DNA of 64,000 nucleotides from Candidatus Peregrinibacteria bacterium CG2_30_44_17 (GCA_001873565.1 MNZJ01000025.1:613-64612), one strand, 5' to 3'. Shown: positions 248-60,875, counted from the stretch's first letter. A program made the numbers and translations. Notes: a model not told the origin generated them from the letters alone.

Positions 248-3200
248 CTACTCCTTAGTAAGATCAGTAAGTCCTGTTCTCTGAATCTTTCCGCCAACAC
301 GCTTTAGGCACTCGCCGAGCTCGTCAACCCAATGCACGCCGAGGTCGATAAATTTACATTTAAGCTTTGTTCCGGAGATAATCCATCTTGGATTGTACTC
401 AAGAAGATTCATGATGTTTTCAGGCTTAACTTTGTCAGACATCGTAAGAATAATTTGCCTGGCGTCGTCGCTATGAACATTCTCTGCTTTCACATTTGTA
501 AGATTAGCCTTTTTGGCAAGAAGCTTAAGCTCAAGAAGCCTAAACAGGTTGGAAACCTCTGTTGGCATCTTTCCGTAATCATCTACTATTTCAGACCGTA
601 GCTCCGACAAATACTTATAGCTGTCTGCACCGGCGAGCTTCTGATAGACATTGATTTTGTCCTTGAAATTAACAATGTAGTCGTCAGGGATAAGAGATGG
701 CAAAGGAAGTTCTATCGAAACATCTACAGGTTTCTCCTCTCCAACGACACTGACGCCATCCTTGAGCTCGGCAACAGCCTGATTAAGCATGCGAATAAAA
801 TGACTAACGCCAACAACGTTAATAGATCCATGCTGACTAGCGCCAAGGATATCGCCTGCCCCGCGAATCTCTAAATCTTTCATGGCTATCTGGAATCCGC
901 TACCAAGTTCTGACGCTTCTACGATTGCGCGCAGTCTTTTTTTCGCATCAAGTTTTAGCCTCTGCTGGCTATACAAAAAGAATGCATAGGCCTGCGTCTT
1001 GCTTCTGCCGACGCGACCACGAAGTTGATAAAGCTGAGCAAGTCCGAATTTTTCCGCATTGTTAACAATAAGCGTATTCGCATTAGAAAGATCTATCCCG
1101 TTTTCGATAATGGTAGAGCTGACAAGAACGTCGTATTCGCCATTTTTAAAAGCCATAATGCGCTCTTCGAGTTCGCTGCTTGAAAGCTTTCCATGCGTAA
1201 CAACAAACCTAGCCTCTGGGACAAGGGCTCTAAGCTTACTGGCCATATCCTCTATTGTTTGAACTCTATTGTGCAAAAAATATGCCTGACCACTTCTCTC
1301 GACTTCCTTCAAAATAGCCTCTCTTATAAGGTTGTAGCTAAACTTCCTAACCTCTGTGATTATAGGAAGACGACCAGGTGGAGGAGTAGTAATTGTAGTT
1401 ATATCTCTAAGTCCGTGAAGACTAATATTTAGCGTTCTTGGTATCGGTGTAGCAGTAAGAGTAAGAACATCTACTTCTGCACGGATATCTTTGAGTGCTT
1501 CTTTTTGCTTAACACCAAATCTCTGTTCTTCGTCTATCACAACAAGTCCGAGATTTTTGAACTCTACGTCGGGCTGCAAAAGACGGTGCGTACCAATGAC
1601 GACATCAACCTCGCCAGCTTTTAGTTGTTTCAAAATCTGTTTTTGTTCGGAAGTAGATTTGAATCGACTCATCATGGCGACGCGAACATGGAAGTCGTCC
1701 ATCCTTTTTTTGAAGCTCTTGTAATGCTGGTCTGCAAGAATAGTAATAGGAGAGACCAAGGCGACTTGCTTGCCGTTTTGAACAGCCTTAAAAGCAGCCC
1801 TCATCGCAACCTCGGTCTTGCCAAAGCCGACGTCTCCACATATAAGACGGTCCATTGGCTTTCCTCTCTCCATGTCGGATTTAACGTCTTTTATAGCTCT
1901 CATCTGTCCGGGAGTTTCTTCGTATTGAAAAGTTTTTTCAAAATCATTTTGAATATCGTTATCATCGGTATAAGAAAAGCCCTTAGCACTCTCTCTCCTA
2001 GCGTAAAGAGCTAGTAATTCTTGGGCGATTTTCTCGGTTTCTTTACGAACCTTGCTCGTAATAGTGGCCCATTCGGCGGATCCAAGACGCGTCAACCTTG
2101 GGGTTTGATCTCCGGCTCCGATAAACTTACTAACCTTGTCAGCTTGGTCGATAGGAACAAAAAGTTTGTCGTTCTCGGCATACCCAATTTTCAAATACTC
2201 ACGGGTAACGTCGTCGACAGTGCGTTTATCAAGACCCATAAAAACACCTATTCCGTGATCGGTGTGCACAACATAATCATTAACCTTGAGACCGGTAAGG
2301 AAATCGGAAAAAACTCTGTACTTGGCATCGTCAACCTTTTTCTTTTCGCGAATATCAATAACTTCTCGGTCGGTAACAACTATTAGTTTGAATTTGGGGT
2401 TTTGAAAAGCTAGTGGAAATTGATCATCTTTGTCTAAACAAACCAAGTTAACTCTAAAATCTTGAATACCGCCGTCTTTGACATCGTGATATTTAACATA
2501 GTTGTCGTCAAACGCTGTCTCGTATTCCGCCCTATGTTTGGTAAAAAGAATGACCTTCCATTCTGACGAGATCTTCTCTTTAACATCGGCTATAAAATCA
2601 AGGAGGTTTTGATACTTCAAAACAGACAAATAATGAAGATGGTGGTGGTACGGCGACTCCTCCATAAAAGAGGTAAAATTAACTCTTAGGGCTTGTGCGT
2701 CTATACACGATACTGAGGCATCATAAATTTCAAGATACTCGTCTAAGATCTCTAGTTCGTCCTCGATTATCAGGCTGTTTTTTCCGAAATAAGAAAAGAG
2801 AGAGGTGTCGTTTTCAACATCTCCAATTGGATAAATAGAAACTTTTTTAATATCTTTTGCGGCAGACCTACTATTTAAATCGTAACAAGAAATATTATCT
2901 ACTGAGTCAAAGCCTATATCTATTTTTATAGGCATTTCAAGATTAACTGGGTGTATGAGGAACACCTCCCCTTCTTTGTAATACTGTCCCTTGGATATTC
3001 TTTTGTCGTCGGAAGACTCGTATCCAACATCTATAAGGCTGTTAAAAAAAGAAACAGTATCTACGGCGTCGCCAACACCAAAACTAAGTATGTTTTTTGA
3101 AACATGATCTAGTGAAGGATACAGATTGGCTAGGTCGTGATAATCAACAATGAAAACGTGTTTTTTGTCAGAATTGATTTTGGCCAAAAAGCACATTGTT

Positions 3201-4666: not shown

Positions 4667-5056
4667 AATTTTTGTTTATTAAATTCTTTTGAATTATACG
4701 TTCTTACTCAATTATTCTCAAAATCTTTTACAAAATACAAGTTGCCAACTTATTAAAAGAATTTTGCACAAACACACAAACACAAACAATCTCTATTTTT
4801 TTATTATATATAAATATATAAACAGTTGTAATAGAGAGGTATTAACAAAAACAAAAAAAGATTGTGATATATATATAAACAAACACTTATGACAATAAAA
4901 AACACCACTGGAAGCAAACAAAAACACAGCTCTTTTGTACAAATTGTGCAAAACTAAACAAAGAGAATCGCGGCTCCCAGACCTAGAAGTAGCGGTGAAC
5001 AAAAATATAAACCTTTAAAACCCTAATAGGATTGTGCAAAACAGGTGCACGAAATG
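4667..5056. promoter_or_regulatory. Candidate replication-origin-like region upstream of dnaN
   Basis: 390-nt non-coding gap. DnaA-box-like 9-mers fit TTWTNCACA: TTTTGCACA (4762-4770) and its inverse TGTGCAAAA (4945-4953 and 5033-5041). The exact 12-mer ATTGTGCAAAAC occurs at 4943-4954 and 5031-5042. An AT-rich tract at about 4795-4885 contains repeated ATATATAAAC. Confidence 0.4.
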
Positions 5057-6937
5057 TTAAACATTCATGATCCAAGGGACCACAAGTGGACTGCGAGCAA
5101 GGCTGCGGTGAGAAACACCGTCCAAAACCCTCTTAACATAATTGCACACATGAAACGAGTTTGCCTTAGGATCTTTTGCCAAAAGGGAGTTGTAAGCTTT
5201 TTCTGCTTCATCTTTCATTTTGGCGACTACTTCATCAGCCTCCTTTACATACAGAAATCCACGGGTCAAAACCAAAGGCTTGTCTTTGAGCTTCTTGGTC
5301 TTTTTGTCGGCACGGAATAAGACAACAAGAACGCCGTTGTGAGCCATAACCTCTCTGTCAACCAAGACCTGCGAGCCAGCATCTCCCATGCCTAGCCCGT
5401 CAACAACGATATAATTAGAAGGGACCTCTTCTTTAGTCATTCTGACGCCAGAACGGTCTATCTCCATGACATTACCATTACCTTCAAACAGGAATAAGTT
5501 TTGGTCACCCAGACCAACCTTCTTGCCCAGCTTGCTATGAGCGGTGCGCATATACAAATTACCATGAATTGGGGCAAGATTTTTAGGCCTGATAAGGCGC
5601 AGCATCTGTTCTAAGTCATCTTGTTTACCGTGACCAGAAGTATGAATATCCATAATATCGTTATTGACGATATTGGCGCCGAGCTTGCAAAGATTATTTA
5701 TAACAGCGGCAACAGCACGCTCGTTACCTATGATAGGATGGGCGGAAAGAACAACGGTATCGCCCTTTTGTATTTTTACATTCTTATGGTCTCCGATAGA
5801 CATTCTTGTCAAAGCGGACATGGCTTCTCCCTGAGAACCGGTTGTTATTATAAGGACTTTGTTCGGTGCAAGCTTAGAAACCTCCTTGATAGGCCTGATC
5901 AGTCCTCGAGGAACTTTTAAATAGCCAAGGTCTCTGGCTATATCGACATTGTTTTCCATGCTGCGACCACTCAGGGCAACAACACGATCATGCTTTTGAG
6001 CAGAGTTAAGTATTTGCTGAATACGACCAATAAGAGACGAAAAAGAGGCGATAATAATACGACCCTCTGTCTCAGATATTACCTTGTCTAATGATTCTCC
6101 AATAATTTTTTCAGATACAGTGCGTCCAGGCTTCAGAGCATTGGTGCTATCAGAAAAAAGCACATCAACGCGATCAAACCCTGTTTTGTTACCTATGGCG
6201 CGCATCTTGTCTGTCTCAGCTGGCACGTCGTCCGCAGGGGTCTCGTCAAATTTGAAATCTCCTGTGTGCACAATAGATCCTACGGGAGAGGTTAAATGCA
6301 CTCCTACGCAATCAGGGATACTGTGATTAACACGGAAAAATTTAGCCTGGAAATGCCCGAGCTTAAGACAGTCGGAGCTCTTGATCTCACGCAAATCGGA
6401 CTGCTTGAGGATTCCATGTTCAGAAAGCTGTTTTTTTATAAGTCCAAGAGTAAGCTTTGTTCCATATACGGGCGGAAATCCAAGTCTGGGTAGTACGTAA
6501 GCTAGCCCACCAATGTGGTCTAGGTGGCCATGAGTAATGATAATACCTCGTATGCGACGTTGCCGCTCTTCGAGATACGTAATATCAGGGATAATATAGT
6601 CTATCCCAAACATATCTTCCTCCGGGAATTGGAATCCCATATCAATGGCGATAATATCGTCGCCATACTCAAATACCATAGAGTTTTTGCCGACTTCTTC
6701 AAGACCGCCAAGCGGAATTACCCGAAGACGAGGGGATTTGTTTTTAGGTTTGCGAGAATGGTTTTGTTTTTTTGGGGGTTGCTTGGATGCCAAAACAAGC
6801 TCTTTGTCTGAGCCATCTTGCATGATTTGCGTTATAAATCGGTCCAGTGCACTACTCTCTTTCTCTTGAGACTGTCTACTTCCCCGGATTTTGTCATTTT
6901 CCATAAATTGAATTATAATATTTTCTAATGGACGCAT
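5057..6937 (-). CDS. rnj: Ribonuclease J (metallo-beta-lactamase/beta-CASP)
   Basis: HGHLDHIGG zinc motif, beta-CASP region and C-terminal domain. The start may instead be the ATG at 6904 (MENDKIRG), because TATAAT hexamers lie at 6940-6945 and 6912-6917 on the minus strand. Confidence 0.85.
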   Translation of the reverse strand: MRPLENIIIQFMENDKIRGSRQSQEKESSALDRFITQIMQDGSDKELVLASKQPPKKQNHSRKPKNKSPRLRVIPLGGLEEVGKNSMVFEYGDDIIAIDMGFQFPEEDMFGIDYIIPDITYLEERQRRIRGIIITHGHLDHIGGLAYVLPRLGFPPVYGTKLTLGLIKKQLSEHGILKQSDLREIKSSDCLKLGHFQAKFFRVNHSIPDCVGVHLTSPVGSIVHTGDFKFDETPADDVPAETDKMRAIGNKTGFDRVDVLFSDSTNALKPGRTVSEKIIGESLDKVISETEGRIIIASFSSLIGRIQQILNSAQKHDRVVALSGRSMENNVDIARDLGYLKVPRGLIRPIKEVSKLAPNKVLIITTGSQGEAMSALTRMSIGDHKNVKIQKGDTVVLSAHPIIGNERAVAAVINNLCKLGANIVNNDIMDIHTSGHGKQDDLEQMLRLIRPKNLAPIHGNLYMRTAHSKLGKKVGLGDQNLFLFEGNGNVMEIDRSGVRMTKEEVPSNYIVVDGLGMGDAGSQVLVDREVMAHNGVLVVLFRADKKTKKLKDKPLVLTRGFLYVKEADEVVAKMKDEAEKAYNSLLAKDPKANSFHVCNYVKRVLDGVSHRSLARSPLVVPWIMNV

Positions 6938-11950: not shown

Positions 11951-11964
11951 CCCTACCCCTTACG

Positions 11965-17900: not shown

Positions 17901-17921
17901 GAAAACGCGAGAAGCTACTAA

Positions 17922-18278
17922 CTAATCCAGGCTGTCTGAGCTATTGGAATTATCGGTTATGCCGGTAATGGTGTCGATAATGTCGCCAAAGTTGATGTAT
18001 TTGATGATATCAAGACCCATTGCACGTCCAACGGTACCAACAATCACAACGGACAAAATAGTAACAACGAGCCCTATAATTGCATACCTGATAGTACTAA
18101 CAGCTTGTTTTATTTTATCCTCCTGTCCTCCCGATAATATGAAAGAAATTCCTCCGAAGAAGATAAAAGCAACACTCAAAAACCCGGCAATTATAATCGC
18201 ATAAGCTATTCCCCTGTTGATAATCTCTACTACGTCGTAAGTTTCCGCGGCACTTACTATTGAAACATCGGGAGCCAT
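17922..18278 (-). CDS. Small two-TM membrane protein, TrbC/VirB2-type (T4SS pilin-like)
   Basis: 118 aa. Two hydrophobic helices flank SGGQEDKIKQA, an arrangement typical of the small pilin-like proteins common in reduced genomes. Confidence 0.45.
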   Translation of the reverse strand: MAPDVSIVSAAETYDVVEIINRGIAYAIIIAGFLSVAFIFFGGISFILSGGQEDKIKQAVSTIRYAIIGLVVTILSVVIVGTVGRAMGLDIIKYINFGDIIDTITGITDNSNSSDSLD

Positions 18279-31802: not shown

Positions 31803-31828
31803 TTGACCGCAAAAGAAAATGTTATAAT
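31803..31828 (+). promoter_or_regulatory. Putative sigma70-type promoter (extended -10) for the acyP leader
   Basis: TTGACC (31803-31808) and TGTTATAAT (the -10 at 31823-31828). The spacer is only 14 nt, so the extended -10 reading is favoured. Confidence 0.45.
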
Positions 31829-31864: not shown

Positions 31865-31880
31865 GCGCGAAGCGCTCCAT
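31865..31880 (+). promoter_or_regulatory. Conserved 16-nt leader box GCGCGAAGCGCTCCAT (copy 1)
   Basis: Identical 16-mer at 58979-58994. It contains the GCGAAGC mini-hairpin core. Confidence 0.7.
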
Positions 31881-31943
31881 CCCTACACCCTACACCCTAC
31901 ACCCTACACCCTACACCCTACACCCTAAGTCCTAAATCTTACC
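31881..31943 (+). repeat. Heptanucleotide tandem array (CCCTACA)x6 plus 3 degenerate units, ending at the acyP start codon
   Basis: Six perfect CCCTACA units span 31881-31922, followed by CCCTAAG, TCCTAAA and TCTTACC. TTG at 31944 follows directly. The minus strand reads (TGTAGGG)n. Confidence 0.95.
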
Positions 31944-32852: not shown

Positions 32853-32880
32853 TCTACAGTCTACAGTTTACAGTCTACTT
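32853..32880. repeat. Heptad array TCTACAG TCTACAG TTTACAG TCTACTT in the infC-rpmI spacer
   Basis: CTA/TTA occur at 32854, 32861, 32868 and 32875, exactly 7 nt apart. The unit at 32875-32877 is the infC TAG stop on the minus strand. Confidence 0.8.
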
Positions 32881-42693: not shown

Positions 42694-42728
42694 CACTAAT
42701 CCCTAACCGCTAAATCCTAAGTCCTAAC
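42694..42728. repeat. Heptad array with five CTA in exact 7-nt phase
   Basis: cACTAat ccCTAac cgCTAaa tcCTAag tcCTAac, with CTA at 42696, 42703, 42710, 42717 and 42724. The unit at 42724-42726 is the TAG stop of the TrmB-like gene on the minus strand. Confidence 0.85.
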
Positions 42729-43032
42729 TTAATACCGGTATAAGCATCTTAAGCTTATTTTCGGCTTCGACAATAATTGACCTTTTTATTTTGAGCATGC
42801 GGAGAATTTTATCAGGACTGCATGGGGCAAAATGCTTAATACCATTTCGGGTCTCCATTCTAAAAATCCCTCTATTACAAAGACATGCAAGATGATTGTA
42901 TGCGTCAACTCTTTTGACATCGGCTTTGCGTGCAATAATACTGGCAGGCTGAGGGCCAAGCTTAAGCGCGGCCATATAGAGCTGCTCATCTTTTGATGTA
43001 AGGTCCAAGATTTGGAAAATCTCACCTAACAT
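42724..43032 (-). CDS. TrmB-like winged-HTH transcriptional regulator (N-terminal domain only)
   Basis: 102 aa. DLTSKDEQLYMAALKLGPQPASIIARKADVKRVDAYNHLACLCNRG fits the TrmB/ArsR-type wHTH pattern. Confidence 0.55.
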   Translation of the reverse strand: MLGEIFQILDLTSKDEQLYMAALKLGPQPASIIARKADVKRVDAYNHLACLCNRGIFRMETRNGIKHFAPCSPDKILRMLKIKRSIIVEAENKLKMLIPVLS

Positions 43033-49492: not shown

Positions 49493-49624
49493 ATGCTACG
49501 CCATATATCATAAAGACCTTAAATTTTTATTAAAAAAATAAATCGCTCAAATTAGGAAGTCCAAAATATTGCATAGCATATGTAAAAGAGTAAAGTACGA
49601 AATCCCTACCACTACTAAACAAAA

Positions 49625-51063: not shown

Positions 51064-51100
51064 TACTACTGACTACCGACTACTGACTAAATCCTACTAA
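51064..51100. repeat. Heptad array ACTACTG ACTACCG ACTACTG ACTAAAT CCTACTA ending 2 nt before the lysS start
   Basis: CTA at 51066, 51073, 51080, 51087 and 51094, exactly 7 nt apart. Confidence 0.8.
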
Positions 51101-51102
51101 CC

Positions 51103-52668
51103 ATGTTTTGGGTAGACGAAATCGCAGACGACATAATAGCCAAATATCCCGACCAAGACACATTCGTAATCCGTGATGAGAAGACGCTGTCCGGACGTGT
51201 CCACATAGGATCTCTTCGAGGAGTAGTCATACATGGTATCATTGCACAGGCACTTCGCGAACGCGGCAAAAAAGCGGAATACTACTTTGAGTTCAACGAC
51301 TTCGATCCGATGGACGGACTACCTGTCTACTTGGATCAGGATAAATACAAGCAGTACATGGGGCAGCCACTTTATACGGTTCCATCGCCGGATCCTGATT
51401 TCAAGAACTATCCCGAATACTTTGGTGAGGAGTTCTTGAGCGTAATAAAGGCCGTAGGCTTCGACCCAAAAATTATAAGAGCAAAAGATCTATACCAAAA
51501 CGGGACCTATAATAAATGGATAGAAAAAGTCCTGACCCATCCAAACGAAATCCGCCAAATTTACAAAGAAGTTAGCGGCAGCGAAAAACCCGACGACTGG
51601 TACCCGTTGCAGGTAATATGTGAAAAATGCGGCAAAGTCGGCACGACAAAAGTCACAGGCATCAAAGGCGACAAAGTAACATACAAATGCATGCCTGACA
51701 TGGTGTCATGGGCGCAAGGATGCGGACACGAAGGCGAGATAAATCCATACGATGGACGCAGCAAACTGCCTTGGAAAGTAGAGTGGGCGGTCAAATGGTC
51801 CGGATTGCCGGTTACGATTGAGGGATCGGGCAAAGACCACAACGCAGCAGGAGGATCTCACGACATTTCCGTCAGGATTTGCAAAGAGATACTGGAGATG
51901 CCGGTTCCATACAACATACCTTACGAATTTTTCTTAACAGGTGGCGCGAAAATGAGCTCATCAAAAGGTGAAGGAGCGACAGCAAAAGCTATCGGGGAAT
52001 TATTGCCACCTGAGATCCTAAGATTTTTGATGATTCAGAAGCACCCAAAACGTCCGATCGAGTTCAACCCGGAGGGATCAACAGTCCCGGTTCTATTCGA
52101 TCAGCACGACAAAGCATCGGAGCAGTATTTCGCCTCGGAGCCGGAAATCCCGGACCATGGAAGACTTTTTCACTACTCTCAAATCAGCGACGCCAAACCG
52201 GTCAAGCATTATTTGCCACGATTCACGAGAGTTATTTTCTTCCTGCAAATGCCGCACATGGACGCGGAGAAGGAAATAGCAGAGATAAAAGGTAGCAAGC
52301 TAACAGTGGAAGACAAAGAAGAAGTGGCAATGCGAATAAAGTACGGCAAAAAGTGGCTAGACTCATACGCACCGGAAGACTTCGTATTTGAGGTGCAAGA
52401 AGTAGCGCCGTCAGTTGATTTGTCTCAAGACCAGAAACAATTCTTACTCCATATAGCGGAAGCGATGAAAGGCGCGGATCTAAAAGGCGAAGACCTCCAC
52501 GCAGAAATCCACAAGATCAGAAAAGCATCACCGTTGCAGCCTCGTGACGCGTTCCAAGCGATATACTTAGCACTTCTGGGAAAAGACTCCGGTCCTCAGG
52601 CCGGTTGGTTCTTGGAAGCTCTTAAAAAAGAGTTCGTAATAAAAAGGTTCACAGAATTGTCAGCCTAA
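51103..52668 (+). CDS. lysS: Lysyl-tRNA synthetase, class I (archaeal-type)
   Basis: 521 aa. HIGH-like SGRVHIGSLRG and KMSSSKG (the class I LysRS form of KMSKS), with no class II motifs. Confidence 0.85.
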   Translation: MFWVDEIADDIIAKYPDQDTFVIRDEKTLSGRVHIGSLRGVVIHGIIAQALRERGKKAEYYFEFNDFDPMDGLPVYLDQDKYKQYMGQPLYTVPSPDPDFKNYPEYFGEEFLSVIKAVGFDPKIIRAKDLYQNGTYNKWIEKVLTHPNEIRQIYKEVSGSEKPDDWYPLQVICEKCGKVGTTKVTGIKGDKVTYKCMPDMVSWAQGCGHEGEINPYDGRSKLPWKVEWAVKWSGLPVTIEGSGKDHNAAGGSHDISVRICKEILEMPVPYNIPYEFFLTGGAKMSSSKGEGATAKAIGELLPPEILRFLMIQKHPKRPIEFNPEGSTVPVLFDQHDKASEQYFASEPEIPDHGRLFHYSQISDAKPVKHYLPRFTRVIFFLQMPHMDAEKEIAEIKGSKLTVEDKEEVAMRIKYGKKWLDSYAPEDFVFEVQEVAPSVDLSQDQKQFLLHIAEAMKGADLKGEDLHAEIHKIRKASPLQPRDAFQAIYLALLGKDSGPQAGWFLEALKKEFVIKRFTELSA

Positions 52669-54389
52669 GGAGTAGTCTCAGGAGCAGCTGCATTCAGGTC
52701 GTCAATAGAAGTAGATGTGGGCACGACACCACCTTGCCATTTGCCGTCTTTGTAAAATCTGAATCCGCTTTCATTGCCGGAGAGCCATGCGCTCTTAATT
52801 GGCTCAGAAATCTGCGATGGATCTGCGAAAACAACAACGTTTACAGCCTCGTTACCAGAGGCAAGTGCGAACTGTCTAGCCGTTTCACGCCCATCTTCGC
52901 CAAAAGCAACTAGAGACACTCCATCATAGCCTTTGACCAAGGTATCAAAATTAGTAGTGGTGACTTCTCGTACTTGCCCCGCTGTAAACGGTTCCGGTTC
53001 AAGCGCATGCAAAGGTGCGGCAAGTGCGTCAATAAGCGTGTTGAATTGACTGTTATACGACATGATAACAAGGTCGTAAGGACTTTCCTCTGTAGTCGTA
53101 ACCAGTAAGCCTTGCACCGACTCGGTGCCAGCGTATTTGAGGCGAATAAATATCAAATTACCATAGTGTATGTCGTCAGCATCAACCATTTTATCGACAC
53201 GAAACATTTCAGCGGTAGAGCCAGGCAAAATAGACTCTGCAGTCTCAGTAAGGGCGTCATCCTTAATCTCGTTTTTTAAAAATCTCTTCCACTGCCTATC
53301 GAAAGCAACTTGCCTCTGTCTAGTCTCGCGCTTCTCTCGTTTTTGCTCGCGAGCAGTAGGCTCCGCTGGTTCATCATCAGCCACTACTGGCCCATTCTGT
53401 GGACTGCCAACTGTGCCTTGAATTGGAGCGGCAGGAGGCTGAGCATCTGGTCCCGTCTGTGGTCCGCTGTCTGTATCTGCGCCTTGTGGTCCGTTGTCTG
53501 CAACGGTAGCAGTAGGATCATCGGTTGTGGCAACAGTAGCAAGTTCGGCATCATCAACATCATCAGGTTGAGCAGCAGGTTCATCAACAGTGTGAGTCCC
53601 AGTCAGATCAGAAGTATCGTCATCAGCCACGTCATCAGCATCCACCGACCCAGTCTGTGGTCCGATGTCTGCGCCTTGTGGACTGCCAACTGTGCCTTGC
53701 TCTCTACCAAGCAAACCTTCGTAATTATTCCCAAGCCACTCGGCAAAAGCTATATTTTGAGCCGCCGTACCCTTATAACCCGTATCAACATTAGATATAG
53801 AGGTGGTGAGTTTAGAATTAATAAAAGCTAAACAGCCAGGATGGGTCTTTAGAAACGCCTTGCGTCCTGCAAAAGTAGGATCCAAGCCCAAGGATCTCAT
53901 TATAGCAACAACGCTACCTGTATCTTTGGCAATTTCGATTGCGGAAGTAGTAGTCAGGATTTCCTCATTAAGGCGTGCATGCTCTAAAGCCGCTTTAGCA
54001 GTTGCCTTATCAGGAGTAAATAAATCCACTTTTGTTTCTGTGGCCGCGCCATCAAGCTGGAATCCGAATTCGAAGCTGCCGCTATTCGCATAAATATTGA
54101 ACTTATCACCAGTGTGCATTTTTGGCGTGCTGATACCATGCCTCCTTACTCGCAAGTCGACATTGATAATTATTTTCTGTTGAGCGGCATTAAGCTCTGC
54201 GAATTTCTTGCCATAAAATCCTTCAGCCATAGCAGCCGTAAAAGACGGGCTGTTTGAACTAACAGCAAAAGCTTTGTTTCCCAGAGTAGTAAGCGCAGCC
54301 TTTAGCTCATCATCTGTCATTTTCCAAGCAGGTTTCTCTGCCAAATGCTCTTGTACTTCTACCTGCGATTTAGGCTCTTCGTAAGGCAT
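52665..54389 (-). CDS. Hypothetical protein with acidic Gly/Pro/Gln-rich repeat linker
   Basis: 574 aa with no signal peptide. The central low-complexity segment carries QGTVGSPQ twice, encoded by exact 23-nt repeats. The C-terminal about 100 aa are loosely thioredoxin-fold-like but lack CxxC. Confidence 0.55.
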   Translation of the reverse strand: MPYEEPKSQVEVQEHLAEKPAWKMTDDELKAALTTLGNKAFAVSSNSPSFTAAMAEGFYGKKFAELNAAQQKIIINVDLRVRRHGISTPKMHTGDKFNIYANSGSFEFGFQLDGAATETKVDLFTPDKATAKAALEHARLNEEILTTTSAIEIAKDTGSVVAIMRSLGLDPTFAGRKAFLKTHPGCLAFINSKLTTSISNVDTGYKGTAAQNIAFAEWLGNNYEGLLGREQGTVGSPQGADIGPQTGSVDADDVADDDTSDLTGTHTVDEPAAQPDDVDDAELATVATTDDPTATVADNGPQGADTDSGPQTGPDAQPPAAPIQGTVGSPQNGPVVADDEPAEPTAREQKREKRETRQRQVAFDRQWKRFLKNEIKDDALTETAESILPGSTAEMFRVDKMVDADDIHYGNLIFIRLKYAGTESVQGLLVTTTEESPYDLVIMSYNSQFNTLIDALAAPLHALEPEPFTAGQVREVTTTNFDTLVKGYDGVSLVAFGEDGRETARQFALASGNEAVNVVVFADPSQISEPIKSAWLSGNESGFRFYKDGKWQGGVVPTSTSIDDLNAAAPETTP

Positions 54390-56202: not shown

Positions 56203-57972
56203 ATGGATAAAATAGCAATTTTAGATTTCGGAAGTCAGTTCGCTCACTTACTCGCAAATCGCATTAGGCGTCTCGGCGTTTATTCGGAAATAATCGATGC
56301 GGACACAAAAGCGGTAGATTTAAAAGACTACAAAGGCATAATCATTTCGGGAAGTCCGGCGTCGGTCAACGCTCCTGATTCGCCGAAAGCAGATCCGAAA
56401 ATCTACGAACTTGGCATTCCGATTTTGGGAGTTTGTTACGGTCATCAATTAACGATGAAAACTCTTGGCGGCGAAGTCCGAAAAGGCAGTGTCGGAGAGT
56501 ACGGCCTGACAAAATTCACAGTACAAAAAAACACAGGAGTTTTAAGCAAATTAGAACAAAAAACTTACCAAGTTTACGCCAGCCATTTCGATTCGGTAGG
56601 TAAGTTGCCAGAAGGGTTCGAAGCGCTAGGCTCAACGCCGGATGATCAGTTTTCAGCAACCGCCAACGAAGAGCGAAGAATCTACACGCTGCAGTTCCAT
56701 CCTGAGGTTACCCATACTGAATGCGGCATGCAAATACTGGAATCATTTGTGGAAATCACAGGAGCAAATCGCGACTGGAGCATAGACAAATTCATAGAGC
56801 TCGAGCTGGATTCGATCACAAAAAAAGTCGGAGACAAAAAAGTCTTCATGCTCGTATCTGGAGGAGTCGATTCGTCTGTAGCGTACGTTCTCCTCGCAAA
56901 AGCCCTCGGACCTGAGAGGATCTACGCGATGTATGTCGACACGGGCTTCATGCGCAAAAACGAAAGCGAAGAGATCAAAAAATTCCTCAAGACGGCGGGA
57001 GTTACAGATTTGCACGTTGAGTACGCGGCGGAAGAGTACTTTATGGCGCTCAAAAACGTTTACGAACCGGAACAAAAACGCAAAATCATCGGCGACAAAT
57101 TCCTGGAAATTCAACGCAGAGTTGCGCAAGAACTTAATCTGAATCCGGATGAGTGGCTCTTGGGGCAAGGCACGATTTATCCTGATACAATCGAGTCGGG
57201 TGGCACAAAGAACGCAGACAAGATCAAGACACATCACAACCGTGTACCGGAAATAGAAGAGATGATCCGCCAAGGCAAAATAATCGAACCGATAAAAGAG
57301 CTCTACAAAGACGAAGTTCGCATGGTAGGACGCAAACTGGGTCTGCCTGACGAGATGGTCGACAGACATCCATTCCCCGGCCCGGGATTAGCGGTAAGGT
57401 GCTTATGTGCGGAGGTGGCGGAGTCATGTAGCGCAGAGGTAGAAGCAGAAGGCTACAAGACGAATGTCTTGCCAATTCAATCTGTCGGAGTCCAAGGAGA
57501 CGAAAGGACTTACAGACATCCTGCTATATTGGAAGGAGATCATGACTGGGAAAAACTCAGAAAGTTGTCTCCTCAAATCACAAACAAATATTCGGAAATT
57601 AACAGGGTTATGTTTGCAGCAAGCGGCCCAATTACGTCAATCTCGGTAACACCTTCCTATCTGACCGAAGAACGTATCGCAACGCTTCAGGAAGCAGATC
57701 AACTCGTCATGGATTTTATCCGAGAAACCGACAAGGAAGGTCTCGTATGGCAGTGTCCAACAGTTCTGTTGCCAATCAGCATCAACGCAGAAGGCAAGGA
57801 GTCGATAGTCATAAGGCCGGTCAGCTCAACAGAGGCAATGACAGCCAATTTCACAGAGCTTCCGTGGGATGGCGTACAGCGCCTCGCAGAAAAGCTCATG
57901 CAGCTGCCAAATATCTCAGCCGTCTTCTACGACATCACGAATAAGCCACCTGGAACGATTGAGTGGGAATAA
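56203..57972 (+). CDS. guaA: GMP synthase (glutamine-hydrolysing)
   Basis: GATase domain (GVCYGHQ), ATP-PPase loop SGGVDSS and C-terminal PPGTIEWE. At 589 aa it is somewhat longer than the usual about 515-525 aa. Confidence 0.9.
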   Translation: MDKIAILDFGSQFAHLLANRIRRLGVYSEIIDADTKAVDLKDYKGIIISGSPASVNAPDSPKADPKIYELGIPILGVCYGHQLTMKTLGGEVRKGSVGEYGLTKFTVQKNTGVLSKLEQKTYQVYASHFDSVGKLPEGFEALGSTPDDQFSATANEERRIYTLQFHPEVTHTECGMQILESFVEITGANRDWSIDKFIELELDSITKKVGDKKVFMLVSGGVDSSVAYVLLAKALGPERIYAMYVDTGFMRKNESEEIKKFLKTAGVTDLHVEYAAEEYFMALKNVYEPEQKRKIIGDKFLEIQRRVAQELNLNPDEWLLGQGTIYPDTIESGGTKNADKIKTHHNRVPEIEEMIRQGKIIEPIKELYKDEVRMVGRKLGLPDEMVDRHPFPGPGLAVRCLCAEVAESCSAEVEAEGYKTNVLPIQSVGVQGDERTYRHPAILEGDHDWEKLRKLSPQITNKYSEINRVMFAASGPITSISVTPSYLTEERIATLQEADQLVMDFIRETDKEGLVWQCPTVLLPISINAEGKESIVIRPVSSTEAMTANFTELPWDGVQRLAEKLMQLPNISAVFYDITNKPPGTIEWE

Positions 57973-57979
57973 AAACCAC

Positions 57980-58016
57980 CAACTACCCCCTAAGTCCTAA
58001 ATCCTAAGTCCTACTT
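57980..58016. repeat. Heptad array between convergent guaA and murI
   Basis: CTA at 57983, 57990, 57997, 58004 and 58011, exactly 7 nt apart (CCTAAGT/CCTAAAT units). The unit at 58011-58013 is the murI TAG stop. Confidence 0.85.
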
Positions 58017-58841
58017 ACCATCCCCCCCCTCAACATTCACCATCTCAATCTTTGGGATAGGATGTCCAAGGAATTTTTCGCCCATTTTCTTGAACTTAAT
58101 AGGATCGTCGGTAGTCATGTAAGTGCGTTTGCCATTACGCGACAAAGACTTGTCTATATCGGGATGCCTCTTGAGGTAGTCCTTTAGGCTTTTTGCCAAG
58201 ACCGAGCCATCTCCGACAATATGCACTTTGCTTCCCATATATTTCTTAAAATCACGCATCATGAGAGGATAGTGAGTACATCCGAGGATCAAGGTGTCGA
58301 TGTGCCGACTTTTCATCGGGCGTAAATACTTTTTGAGGACCATTTTGGCCTCGGGCTTGTCATGCCAGCCTTCCTCAATGAAAGGAACAAGGAGAGGGCA
58401 TGGCATTGAAAAAATCTCTATTTCAGGATCAATCTTCAGAATTTCAGTCTCATAGGCACGAGAACTTATCGTGCCTTTGGTCCCAACGACGCCAACTCGC
58501 TTGTTTTTTGTTTTTGTAGCAGCCTCCTCTGAAAATGGGAATATAACACCAAGTATGTTTTTCTTATCTTTCAGCCCTGCATCAACGATGTATTTATTCT
58601 GCAAATGCCTTAGAGCAAGTCCTGATATGGTATTGCATGCCACTATGATGAGTTTCACGTCTCTATCAAAAAGAAACTCAACAATCTCCTCGGAGAATCT
58701 GGTAATTGTCTCACGACTATGCGATCCATAAGGTGCGCGAGCGCTATCGCCAAGGTAAACATAATCGTACTCAGGCATATCCGATAGCAGCCCTTTGAGC
58801 ACAGAGAGTCCGCCGAAGCCGGAATCTATAACACCAATCAT
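58011..58841 (-). CDS. murI: Glutamate racemase
   Basis: IGVIDSGFGGLSV, the catalytic Cys regions IVACNT and LGCTHYP. 276 aa. Confidence 0.92.
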   Translation of the reverse strand: MIGVIDSGFGGLSVLKGLLSDMPEYDYVYLGDSARAPYGSHSRETITRFSEEIVEFLFDRDVKLIIVACNTISGLALRHLQNKYIVDAGLKDKKNILGVIFPFSEEAATKTKNKRVGVVGTKGTISSRAYETEILKIDPEIEIFSMPCPLLVPFIEEGWHDKPEAKMVLKKYLRPMKSRHIDTLILGCTHYPLMMRDFKKYMGSKVHIVGDGSVLAKSLKDYLKRHPDIDKSLSRNGKRTYMTTDDPIKFKKMGEKFLGHPIPKIEMVNVEGGDGK

Positions 58842-58918
58842 AAATAGTCAGTAGTTTGTAGTAGAAGCGACCAAAAAGCATTATCTAAGCTGGAAGGCCA
58901 CAAGTCTACCCTAACAGA

Positions 58919-58947
58919 TTGACCTATTGGGCAAAAACAGGTATAAT
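58919..58947 (+). promoter_or_regulatory. Near-consensus sigma70-type promoter upstream of the K+ channel gene
   Basis: TTGACC (58919-58924), a 17-nt spacer and TATAAT (58942-58947). Confidence 0.65.
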
Positions 58948-58978
58948 ATACAGATAAAATTATGTCTAAAACTAACCT

Positions 58979-59017
58979 GCGCGAAGCGCTCCATGGAACA
59001 AAACCCCTAAGTCCTAA
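58979..59017 (+). promoter_or_regulatory. Leader boxes GCGCGAAGCGCTCCAT and CCCTAAGTCCTAA (copy 2)
   Basis: The 16-mer at 58979-58994 is identical to 31865-31880. The 13-mer at 59005-59017 is identical to 31923-31935. Confidence 0.7.
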
Positions 59018-59033
59018 CTACAAAAAGCACCTC

Positions 59034-59792
59034 ATGGATTTCAAAGAAGCAATTAACATTATCGAACAGCGCGGAGACTTCAATCAGTATGCGAAGTTAC
59101 GTACTGTTTTTGAAGATAAATTACAGGAGTTGGACAGGTCGGACTACACGGAAAGAGGGCTTTGCTACTATTACCTCTTAGTTAGCTTGCTCAAAGCACA
59201 CTTGGTTTACGATACGGAAGAGTGTAGGGAGTTTTATACAAGAATGGACATCGAATTCCAGAAGCAGGAAGAGAAATACAAAGAGGAGAGGGCAAGATTC
59301 TCAGGCATGGAGATTGCGGATTTTTACCATCTAATGGAGCGTTGTTACAGCTCGCTCGAGATCATATACGAGAAGAAAGACTTTGCAGAGAGCCGCAAGA
59401 AATCTTATGAAAGGAAGATGATTTTTAGGAAAAACGCATATTGGTTCGAAAAAAAATACGGAAGTTGGCTCGAATACGAACTGCTGCAACTTACATGTCT
59501 ATATGGCGACAGTTTCGTTAGATGGGGAATAACTGCATTAGCTTTTAGCTTTGTAGTAGCTTTCTTATATTTCTTGATAGACCTGCCTGTCGCAGAGCAG
59601 CACAAAATGGTTTCAGGCCTCGGAGGGCACTGGTTTGATTACATCTACTTCTCTATCATTACCCTGACAAGCTTGGGATTCGGGGATTTCGTACCGATGA
59701 CATTAGCAGGGAAAATACTAACCTCAATAGAAGCATTTTTTGGATTCGTAATGCTTGGTATTTTTATCACACTGATACAGAAAAAAATCTAG
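59034..59792 (+). CDS. Two-TM potassium channel (Ion_trans_2) with N-terminal soluble domain
   Basis: K+ selectivity filter TLTSLGFGD lies between two C-terminal TM helices. Start set at the ATG at 59034, because 58962-59033 carries a nucleotide-level repeat shared, in a different frame, with the acyP leader. Confidence 0.7.
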   Translation: MDFKEAINIIEQRGDFNQYAKLRTVFEDKLQELDRSDYTERGLCYYYLLVSLLKAHLVYDTEECREFYTRMDIEFQKQEEKYKEERARFSGMEIADFYHLMERCYSSLEIIYEKKDFAESRKKSYERKMIFRKNAYWFEKKYGSWLEYELLQLTCLYGDSFVRWGITALAFSFVVAFLYFLIDLPVAEQHKMVSGLGGHWFDYIYFSIITLTSLGFGDFVPMTLAGKILTSIEAFFGFVMLGIFITLIQKKI

Positions 59793-60446: not shown

Positions 60447-60496
60447 TTTTCATTTTTATTTATACCCAAATACATATTAATCACCGACAGACAACT

Positions 60497-60634
60497 TGTC
60501 TAGACAAAATAGACGGCGTGTCTACTTGATGTCTACTAGTGACTAGTCCAGAAAGAGGCTTAAAGCCTAGGCAGTAGACGAGCTGTCTGGACATGTCTAC
60601 CTTGCTGTCTAGACAAAATAGACAGGCTGTCTAT
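60497..60634. repeat. Iteron/palindrome cluster upstream of the tail-anchored HTH gene
   Basis: The 18-mer TGTCTAGACAAAATAGAC is exact at 60497-60514 and 60606-60623, and each copy starts with the palindrome TGTCTAGACA. Additional GTCTAC/GTAGAC/GTCTGGAC units lie at 60520-60525, 60531-60536, 60574-60579, 60585-60592 and 60595-60600. The centre has the palindrome CTAGTGACTAG (60535-60545) and the hairpin AGGCT-TAA-AGCCT. Confidence 0.85.
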
Positions 60635-60875
60635 GCTGTTTGGATAGGCGGAAATGAGATATGAACTAGGACACATGCTCGCTATGCAGGTTTGTGGCGG
60701 GAAACATGGTTTTGACGTGGTGCGTTTTGTATTGCTGAGTGTCTAATCGACTAAGCAAAAGAGGCTGGTTCTAGGGCGAAAATCTATAGGCGATATCACA
60801 AGGTAGCTGGCGCGTGCGCCAATGAAATGGTATTTTTATGCTCGAAAAATAATTCGAATAATCAATGCTCTCTGA

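Follow-up and report, generated by a model that had tools for sequence, protein, structure and literature searches.

The 64,000-nt stretch of a Candidatus Peregrinibacteria genome analysed here (the window), from the CPR (Candidate Phyla Radiation), consists to about 90% of coding DNA. Within it a spacer of 38 nt, nearly all of it a heptanucleotide array, separates the convergent genes guaA (56203-57972, plus strand) and murI (58011-58841, minus strand). Bases 57980-58016 read AACTACCCCCTAAGTCCTAAATCCTAAGTCCTACTTACC, and the trinucleotide CTA stands at 57983, 57990, 57997, 58004 and 58011, exactly where the initial annotation of this DNA had placed five CTA spaced 7 nt apart. Two related statements of that annotation also hold. 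On the minus strand, murI terminates at the last CTA (58011-58013), and TAA recurs every 7 nt on the plus strand past the end of guaA (57991, 57998 and 58005). As plus-strand RNA, the array is predicted to be unstructured.

Exact-protein look-ups place the same species, with nucleotide identities above 99.7%, in GCA_002783025.1 and in about one hundred assemblies from groundwater. Exact-protein matches (L081, L086, L096 and L100) also supplied independent gene calls (60) and Pfam hits for the window. Its products include a LysRS of class I and a GuaA of 589 aa, and the nearest GuaA loci among 185,579 species genomes all belong to metagenome-assembled genomes (MAGs) of Candidatus Peregrinibacteria/Peribacteria, at 73-81% identity. 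A cyanobacterial source of the DNA, which repeats resembling the STRR of cyanobacteria might suggest, was rejected on the LysRS class and on these GuaA relatives. Our lineage survey comprises 1.24 Mb, made up of the window and 80 related loci, with about 13% non-coding DNA and 87% in open reading frames (ORFs). The ORFs of the relatives are crude longest-ORF calls, and their start coordinates are likewise crude.

We searched for repeats with Tandem Repeats Finder (TRF) and with a scan for phased trinucleotides at periods 4-12. At period 7, CTA arrays begin on the plus strand at 31883 (8 units) and at 42696, 51066 and 57983 (5 units each), and a TAG array of 3 units begins at 58845. The scan found no CTA array at periods 4-6 and 8-12 in the window; TAG gave two 3-unit runs at period 9 and two at period 12. 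The chance baseline was set by second-order Markov simulations of the window (n=200), which yielded a mean of 0.19 arrays of at least 3 units per window and none of at least 5, against four of at least 5 in the real sequence. TRF reported (CCCTACA)6.7, (TCTACAG)3.7, (ACTACTG)3.6 and (CCTAAGT)3.6.

The excess is intergenic. All five window arrays of at least 3 units lie between genes despite the high coding density, and 30 of the 35 CTA/TAG pairs at spacing 7 are intergenic, compared with 3-7 of the 9-31 pairs at the other spacings between 4 and 11. Against simulated controls, a comparison akin to that proposed in the initial annotation, the excess of arrays is large. Across the lineage, 27 arrays are intergenic and 18 lie in ORFs, an approximately 10-fold enrichment in non-coding DNA. 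Strict gap-free arrays number 15 at period 7 and at most 6 at any other period from 4 to 12, and TRF lists 93 period-7 arrays in the survey, along with 142 of period 9 that are mostly coding. The arrays are real, significant and clade-wide.

The arrangement in the guaA/murI spacer recurs, as had been noted, with the stop codons of a TrmB-like gene (42724) and of infC (32875) forming the first units of arrays (Table 1). Other arrays adjoin start codons as described, at 31881-31943 (acylphosphatase TTG, 31944) and at 51064-51100 (lysS ATG, 51103). Shorter versions claimed at 11951, 49603, 58845 (minus strand) and 59005 are all present, 0-16 nt upstream of a start codon, and each taken singly is within chance. 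Read on the minus strand, the 32854 array runs TAG (the infC stop, 32875), TAA, TAG, TAG, and on that strand the pdxS start follows the 42696 array at a distance of about 80 nt. Four of the sites share a module CCTAAGT/CCTAAAT, with 7 matches where 0.4 would be expected, and the 51066 array includes a single CTAAATC unit. The proposal that the unit varies while the CTA phase is kept holds in part: CTA is kept beyond the homogeneous core, but the units, sharing CCTAAGT/CCTAAAT, are less independent than the proposal implied.

Table 1. Heptanucleotide arrays and associated leader motif in the window (positions counted from the first base of the window)
Feature	Position	Strand	Units or sequence	Context
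Array	57983..58017	+	CTACCCC CTAAGTC CTAAATC CTAAGTC CTACTTA	nearly whole guaA/murI spacer
Array	42696..42730	+	CTAATCC CTAACCG CTAAATC CTAAGTC CTAACTT	CTA 42724 is the TrmB-like stop (minus strand)
Array	32854..32880	+	CTACAGT CTACAGT TTACAGT CTAC	between infC and rpmI
Array	31881..31943	+	(CCCTACA)6 then CCCTAAG TCCTAAA TCTTACC	ends at acylphosphatase TTG start, 31944
Array	51066..51102	+	CTACTGA CTACCGA CTACTGA CTAAATC CTACTAACC	ends at lysS ATG, 51103
Short CTA-rich run	49603..49624	+	CCCTACCACTACTAAACAAAA	ends at dnaB ATG, 49625
Two units	11951..11964	+	CCCTACC CCTTACG	whole 14-nt spacer, release-factor gene stop to def start (11965)
Sense-CUA leader array	58842..58866	-	CUACUACAAACUACUGACUAUUU	ends at murI ATG (58841); plus strand reads TAG
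Short array	59005..59022	+	CCCTAAGTCCTAACTAC	leader of K-channel gene
Mini-array, two phased CTA	17915..17924	+	CTAACTACTA...	second CTA (17922) is the pilin-like gene stop (minus strand)
Leader motif with predicted GCGC-GAA-GCGC mini-hairpin	31865..31880	+	GCGCGAAGCGCTCCAT	directly 5' of 31881 array
Leader motif, second exact copy	58979..58994	+	GCGCGAAGCGCTCCAT	between predicted promoter 58919-58947 and 59005 array

We compared the arrays between strains of the species, using 10-12 contigs for most of them and 3-5 for those at 11951, 32853 and 42694. The perfect array (CCCTACA)n has 6 copies in the window and in three contigs and 14 copies in two others, and strains with 6 or 14 copies differ by 0.03-0.07% elsewhere, so that the comparison of copy number suggested in the initial annotation does uncover a polymorphism. 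Degenerate arrays showed no copy-number variation in the contigs compared, and the guaA/murI array is unchanged in 10 strain contigs. Strain L097 has 13 mismatches to the window, and 3 of these are located in the dnaB-lysS spacer of 91 nt; through two of the three, the second unit of the 51066 array changes from CTACCGA to CCACTGA, which breaks the CTA core.

No array lies 3' of guaA in any of the nine relatives examined, and L001 carries an ordinary hairpin there; the conservation of position by which the initial annotation proposed to judge its idea is thus missing for the guaA/murI array. Heptamer families differ by genome, with TCAAAAC, TTGAAAA, TTAAGAC, GTCAATT and AATTTGT in other members of the clade, and some of these genomes carry heptamer arrays as densely as one per 1-3 kb. 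CTA is not the universal core of the clade's heptamers.

CTA and TAG arrays also occur in relatives. L001 has a five-unit CTA array in its K-channel leader, with filler bases unlike those of the window, a 14-unit TAG array (GTAGGCC GTAGTTC) from the K-channel stop onward and one more array, the third, running as far as the convergent gene's stop. Stop codons are the first array unit in L049 and L047 too, inverted TAG/CTA array pairs are found in L049 and L078, and further CTA arrays in L059, L060 and L075. A TAG-sense array running from a stop codon is followed by an inverted CTA-sense copy at L001 6993-7157, L049 3391-3457 and 8901-8973, and L078 14599-14685. The hairpins predicted for these pairs consist entirely of heptamer units (L049, -35 kcal/mol, z = -7; L001, -51.6 kcal/mol, z = -5.6; L078, z = -4.6). 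Orthologous leaders keep CTA-rich repeats with other filler, as in lysS (L045 and L006), the K-channel gene (L001) and dnaB (L045), where the site of the window's run reads CCCTACCGTTAC.

Arrays are also found inside a gene. The guaA of L059, a related Peribacteria MAG, holds three sense-CTA arrays in frame, (CTACCAG)4.3, (CTACAAG)3.6 and (CCTACCT)6, at 1808-1837, 2419-2443 and 2971-3013. Two of the three are insertions relative to the window protein, and the arrays encode stretches such as PATSYQLPALS that are missing from the window GuaA. The reading frame is intact and the orientation is the one without a stop triplet. Because these arrays sit in frame within guaA, arrays can arise where no intergenic function is possible.

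The orientation of the arrays follows their position relative to genes. With the external gene calls as reference, six sites of the window are in the G-poor CUA sense and stop 0-16 nt short of start codons, namely those of def (11965), acylphosphatase (31944), dnaB (49625), lysS (51103), murI (58841, minus strand) and the K-channel gene (near 59035). Arrays adjoining a start are in the G-poor sense in 6/6 cases in the window and in 7/8 comparable arrays noted in relatives. Three sites in the UAG sense begin at a stop codon (infC, the TrmB-like gene and murI), and the next start is about 35 nt or more away.

The leaders of this organism have a composition of their own. A Shine-Dalgarno core (GGAG, GAGG or AGGA at -20 to -4) precedes 5 of the 60 genes, G makes up 3-15% of positions -16 to -1 compared with 22% genome-wide, and ACTA and CTAA are 3-5 fold enriched in the last 16 nt before starts even when the array genes are left out. 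The CUA-sense arrays are predicted to be unpaired, including the 31881 array in its leader fold. The arrays fit this usual leader composition. YTA shows a general enrichment, being found at -7 to -5 in 13 of the 60 genes (4.8 expected), and the same 60 genes show no sharp peak of CTA or YTA relative to start codons. The phase of the arrays to the start varies by gene (-5/-12/-19, -6/-13/-20 or -9/-16). A fixed motif substituting for Shine-Dalgarno is not supported, given the missing positional peak and the differing phases.

Two unrelated leaders, those of acylphosphatase and of the K-channel gene, share the 16-nt GCGCGAAGCGCTCCAT, placed in each case between a predicted promoter (near 31805 and at 58919-58947) and the CTA array, and this motif is kept in the K-channel leader of L001 (about 6176-6197), a relative at 76% GuaA identity. 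The public call of the K-channel gene (276 aa, start 58962) probably begins too early: the conserved protein starts at ATGGATTTC near 59035, and the called N-terminus (window 58962-59034) corresponds to the leader motif plus the repeat array. When the complete window was searched against Rfam, no family reached its gathering threshold, which leaves the arrays and the leader motif without a known RNA family.

Taken together, these observations indicate that the arrays are probably degenerate heptanucleotide microsatellites driven by slippage, with placement and orientation filtered by the flanking genes. Slippage-prone microsatellites were the last of the roles listed in the initial annotation, and they are the best supported, by the copy-number polymorphism and by the in-frame arrays in guaA. 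The arrays would arise, grow, shrink and diverge through slipped-strand mispairing or related local copying. The site and orientation of the arrays that persist agree with the tolerance of the genes next to them. Arrays in the G-poor CUA sense, predicted to be unstructured, suit leaders poor in Shine-Dalgarno sites and depleted of G, and can reach the start codon or even sit in frame in a gene. In the UAG sense an array is untranslatable and hence confined beyond a gene end, where the first in-frame TAG is, or becomes, the stop codon of the gene. Because the period is 7 and the unit holds a stop triplet, simple arithmetic places stops in all three frames. Since spacers measure only 14-110 nt, any array within them must come up against a start or stop codon, and the arrays largely are the spacers of this compact genome. 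The all-frame stops look like a by-product rather than a purpose.

Several observations weigh against slippage as the whole account. The CTA phase is held in flanking units whose other four bases differ, and CTA/TAG is the most over-represented trinucleotide among the lineage array units (14, with 5.9 expected). A stop triplet on at least one strand is present in 27 of 30 intergenic arrays, compared with 57% of intergenic 7-mers (p about 1e-4). CTA leaders of lysS and of the K-channel gene are kept in relatives at 76-84% GuaA or LysS identity. The copy-number difference was seen at one array only, and the longest-ORF calls that underlie the comparisons in relatives are crude. Simple neutral slippage predicts neither the lasting CTA core, also in orthologous leaders, nor the surplus of units containing stops, so that selection on the core, or a generating mechanism with sequence specificity, may also be at work. 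For the CTA core and for the CCTAAGT/CCTAAAT module, the most likely source is shared ancestry or inter-array copying, together with a generating bias specific to the lineage.

In a rival account, a factor reads the triplets. Phased CUA/UAG would then be bound by an RNA- or single-stranded DNA-binding protein or by the ribosome, at initiation without Shine-Dalgarno or at mRNA 3' ends, and we regard this as unlikely. It would account for a CTA core that is kept while the filler varies, within arrays as well as between orthologous leaders, for the six arrays 0-16 nt from starts in a genome almost without Shine-Dalgarno sites, and for the conserved GCGCGAAGCGCTCCAT ahead of two arrays and of the L001 ortholog. 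A comparable role was proposed by MacGregor for TAACTGA repeats (PMC4679880). Against it, CTA shows no positional peak and its phase to the start differs between genes, the adjacent genes share no functional theme, other clade genomes have heptamers without CTA, copy number can go from 6 to 14 without other change, and there is no Rfam family match.

The nearest model for such a factor is HutP. This hexameric protein recognizes an operator of three XAG triplets with 4-nt spacers (PMC2425495); with U4 as spacer the period is 7, so that the operator, like the arrays, presents an AG-ending triplet every 7 nt in single-stranded RNA. Minus-strand transcripts of the 57983, 42696 and 32854 arrays would display UAG or UAA every 7 nt, 4-5 times. 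The HutP operator, however, consists of two sites flanking a terminator stem upstream of one operon and needs HutP, whereas the arrays have no terminator context, most of those in the window are CUA-sense, and the Pfam hits of the ~60 window genes include no member of the HutP or TRAP families. By analogy, a clade-specific cis-code, in which a Peregrinibacteria factor (a HutP-like ring protein, or the ribosome) reads triplets at 7-nt spacing, can be imagined but seems improbable. If it existed, CUA arrays would replace Shine-Dalgarno as a landing pad for ribosomes, UAG arrays would mark and secure gene ends, and slippage would tune expression through unit number. The ribosomal protein bS21 is frequently missing in the clade (PMC9297842). 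Should a factor indeed read the CTA core, it would represent a new translation or termination signal.

The initial annotation itself favored stop blocks, with selection keeping TAG-sense arrays as a fail-safe at gene ends, where ribosomes that had read through or shifted frame would be caught in any frame and neighbouring genes insulated. The murI, infC and TrmB-like stops are the first units of arrays, and relatives are alike in this respect (the 14-unit TAG array of the L001 K-channel gene and the array of its convergent gene, L049 and L047). Units containing stops are enriched, 27/30 arrays against 57% expected. Both core variants in the window change CTA to TTA, which on the minus strand turns TAG into TAA, and L047 shows TGA to TAA. 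With 28 of 60 genes ending in it, TAG is among the main stop codons of this genome. The abutment of arrays to gene boundaries, which had been proposed for comparison with chance, was tested by random placement in the same spacers: overlap with an upstream stop exceeds expectation (8 observed, 3.8 expected) but abutment to starts does not (2 observed, 3.0 expected, with crude starts).

This excess at stops is only about twofold, and further tests turn against stop blocks. In the lineage, mismatches affect 11.5% of stop triplet positions and 14.3% of filler (p = 0.17), so that stop triplets are no better conserved, and a stop is retained in only 11 of 67 variant triplets, roughly as expected by chance. 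Six of the nine window sites are in the CUA sense before starts, and (CCCTACA)n has no stop on its sense strand. Arrays also lie in frame inside a gene (L059 guaA), the L097 variant destroys a CTA, and the guaA/murI array is missing in nine relatives. The insulator claim thus fails on conservation, orientation, in-gene occurrence, abutment and position, and we give it little credence. Among the 60 gene calls, TAG and TAA each terminate 28 genes and TGA terminates 4; two of the TGA stops sit in ATGA gene overlaps (the PMT_2 and GH18 genes).

Transcription termination, with C-rich, G-poor arrays serving as Rho loading sites and inverted pairs as hairpin terminators or RNA-stability elements, appears very unlikely. 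In its favor, about 80 nt on the plus strand downstream of guaA are almost G-free, C-rich and unstructured, a make-up that would suit a Rho utilisation site (70-80 nt or more) if the organism has Rho, and a terminator scan of the convergent 38-nt spacer detected no intrinsic terminator. For the inverted array pairs of relatives (L049, L001 and L078), long hairpins are predicted directly after stops. The leader arrays, though, are shorter than a Rho site, the window arrays have no inverted partner, UAG-sense arrays are G-rich, and most window arrays lie within operons or in leaders before starts (dnaB-lysS, release-factor gene-def, infC-rpmI), where termination would be harmful. Terminator scan and folding detected no intrinsic terminator (a G+C-rich hairpin followed by a U run) in the window arrays, which are predicted to be unpaired.

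A link to replication, in which clustered CTA would mark or arise from DnaG priming or slippage on the lagging-strand template, is extremely unlikely: CTA does lie on the plus strand in 8 of 9 window sites whatever the gene direction, TTA is the only kind of core variant in the window, and d(CTA) and, less so, d(TTA) are primase initiation sites in the Firmicutes Staphylococcus, Bacillus and Geobacillus, d(CTA) also in Proteobacteria (PMC2978363), but GC skew tracks the gene strand so that the CTA strand bias is not tied to a replichore, the dnaN-proximal spacer lacks a DnaA box, L001, L049 and L078 carry CTA and TAG arrays on one strand a few dozen bases apart, and CTA is common enough (701 copies in the 64 kb) for priming without arrays.

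As probable slippage-driven microsatellites filtered by their neighbours, the arrays belong to a known repeat class and differ from its described members in unit sequence, in the CPR host and in their degeneracy around a CTA core. The initial annotation had recognized no described element class, and on this point it needs correcting, as intergenic heptanucleotide tandem repeats (STRR, TAACTGA and GGGAATC) are known. Short tandemly repeated repetitive (STRR) heptanucleotides were reportedly described by Mazel and colleagues in 1990 in heterocystous cyanobacteria (Calothrix, Nostoc and Anabaena). The STRR units are CCCCAGT, TTGGTCA and CAACAGT. Like the arrays studied here, STRR sequences are head-to-tail 7-nt units of several families per genome, mostly intergenic, present within operons and variable in length. 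The units here are instead CCTAAGT, CCCTACA, TCTACAG and ACTACTG, the host is a CPR bacterium rather than a cyanobacterium, and the arrays are short and degenerate with a common CTA core. Assignment to cyanobacterial STRR in the strict sense is ruled out by the unit sequences and by the Candidatus Peregrinibacteria host.

A parallel in placement is found in marine Beggiatoaceae, which have 169 sets of TAACTGA repeats, mostly forward and just upstream of starts, in spacers without Shine-Dalgarno; these repeats put a stop in each frame, and no structure is predicted for them (PMC4679880). TAACTGA direct repeats also occur in some cyanobacteria and Bacteroidetes (MacGregor 2015, PMC4679880). Both systems consist of heptamers, in 2-6 copies for TAACTGA, mostly in one orientation a few nucleotides before starts in spacers lacking Shine-Dalgarno, and both combine all-frame stops with only marginal overlap of gene ends, no predicted RNA structure and no functional theme. 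This type of placement is found in the window, with six arrays 0-16 nt before starts and Shine-Dalgarno cores in 5 of 60 genes. TAACTGA is however a single invariant unit, whereas the filler here varies around CTA, and unlike TAACTGA some arrays here are TAG-sense at stops and copy number is polymorphic between strains. The TRF output for the window contains no TAACTGA array.

According to the reviews that summarize Mrazek et al. 2007 (PMC4679880, PMC4692102), heptamers are the most abundant long simple sequence repeats in most genomes surveyed, and slippage was proposed as their source. In that account, long simple sequence repeats (5-11-nt units) resemble the arrays here in the predominance of heptamers, in the proposed slippage, in lengths and sequences that vary between close relatives and in the occurrence of inverted array pairs. 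The intergenic location of such repeats follows from a unit length, 7, that 3 does not divide. Xanthomonas carries intergenic GGGAATC heptamers, and STRR of Calothrix and Nostoc are mentioned in the same paper (PMC4692102). Quadruplexes are formed by the G-rich repeats of Xanthomonas and Nostoc; among the arrays studied here, this potential is limited to the strand complementary to (CCCTACA)n. A literature search found no paper on such repeats in Peregrinibacteria or CPR.

The clade therefore combines compact genomes with dense, unstable heptamers that form many of the spacers and expand in frame in housekeeping genes. The arrays can be used as variable-number tandem repeat (VNTR) strain markers, they influence the placement of stop codons, and they are a likely cause of assembly breaks and of gene-start miscalls in MAGs. 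After Beggiatoa and cyanobacteria, this is a third, unrelated lineage with heptamers at starts lacking Shine-Dalgarno, which makes the question of a role of such repeats in Shine-Dalgarno-independent initiation more general and more testable.

Three further regions of the window were noted. Upstream of dnaN, a 390-nt AT-rich spacer (4667-5056) contains tandem repeats of CACAAACA and of ATATATAA as well as TGTGCAAAAC in three copies, and no DnaA box within one mismatch was found in it; GTGCAAAACTA is also present upstream of dnaB in several relatives. This spacer could be an origin or hold a clade-specific promoter motif. A 430-nt spacer at 60447-60875 carries many direct and inverted copies of TGTCTAC/GTAGACA and may act in the manner of an operator. 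A gene without a Pfam match (52665-54389, minus strand), flanked by the DUF4012 gene and lysS, has a called product of 84-621 aa, at times split in two, among strains more than 99.7% identical (L086-L099); it looks hypervariable and is probably repeat-containing.

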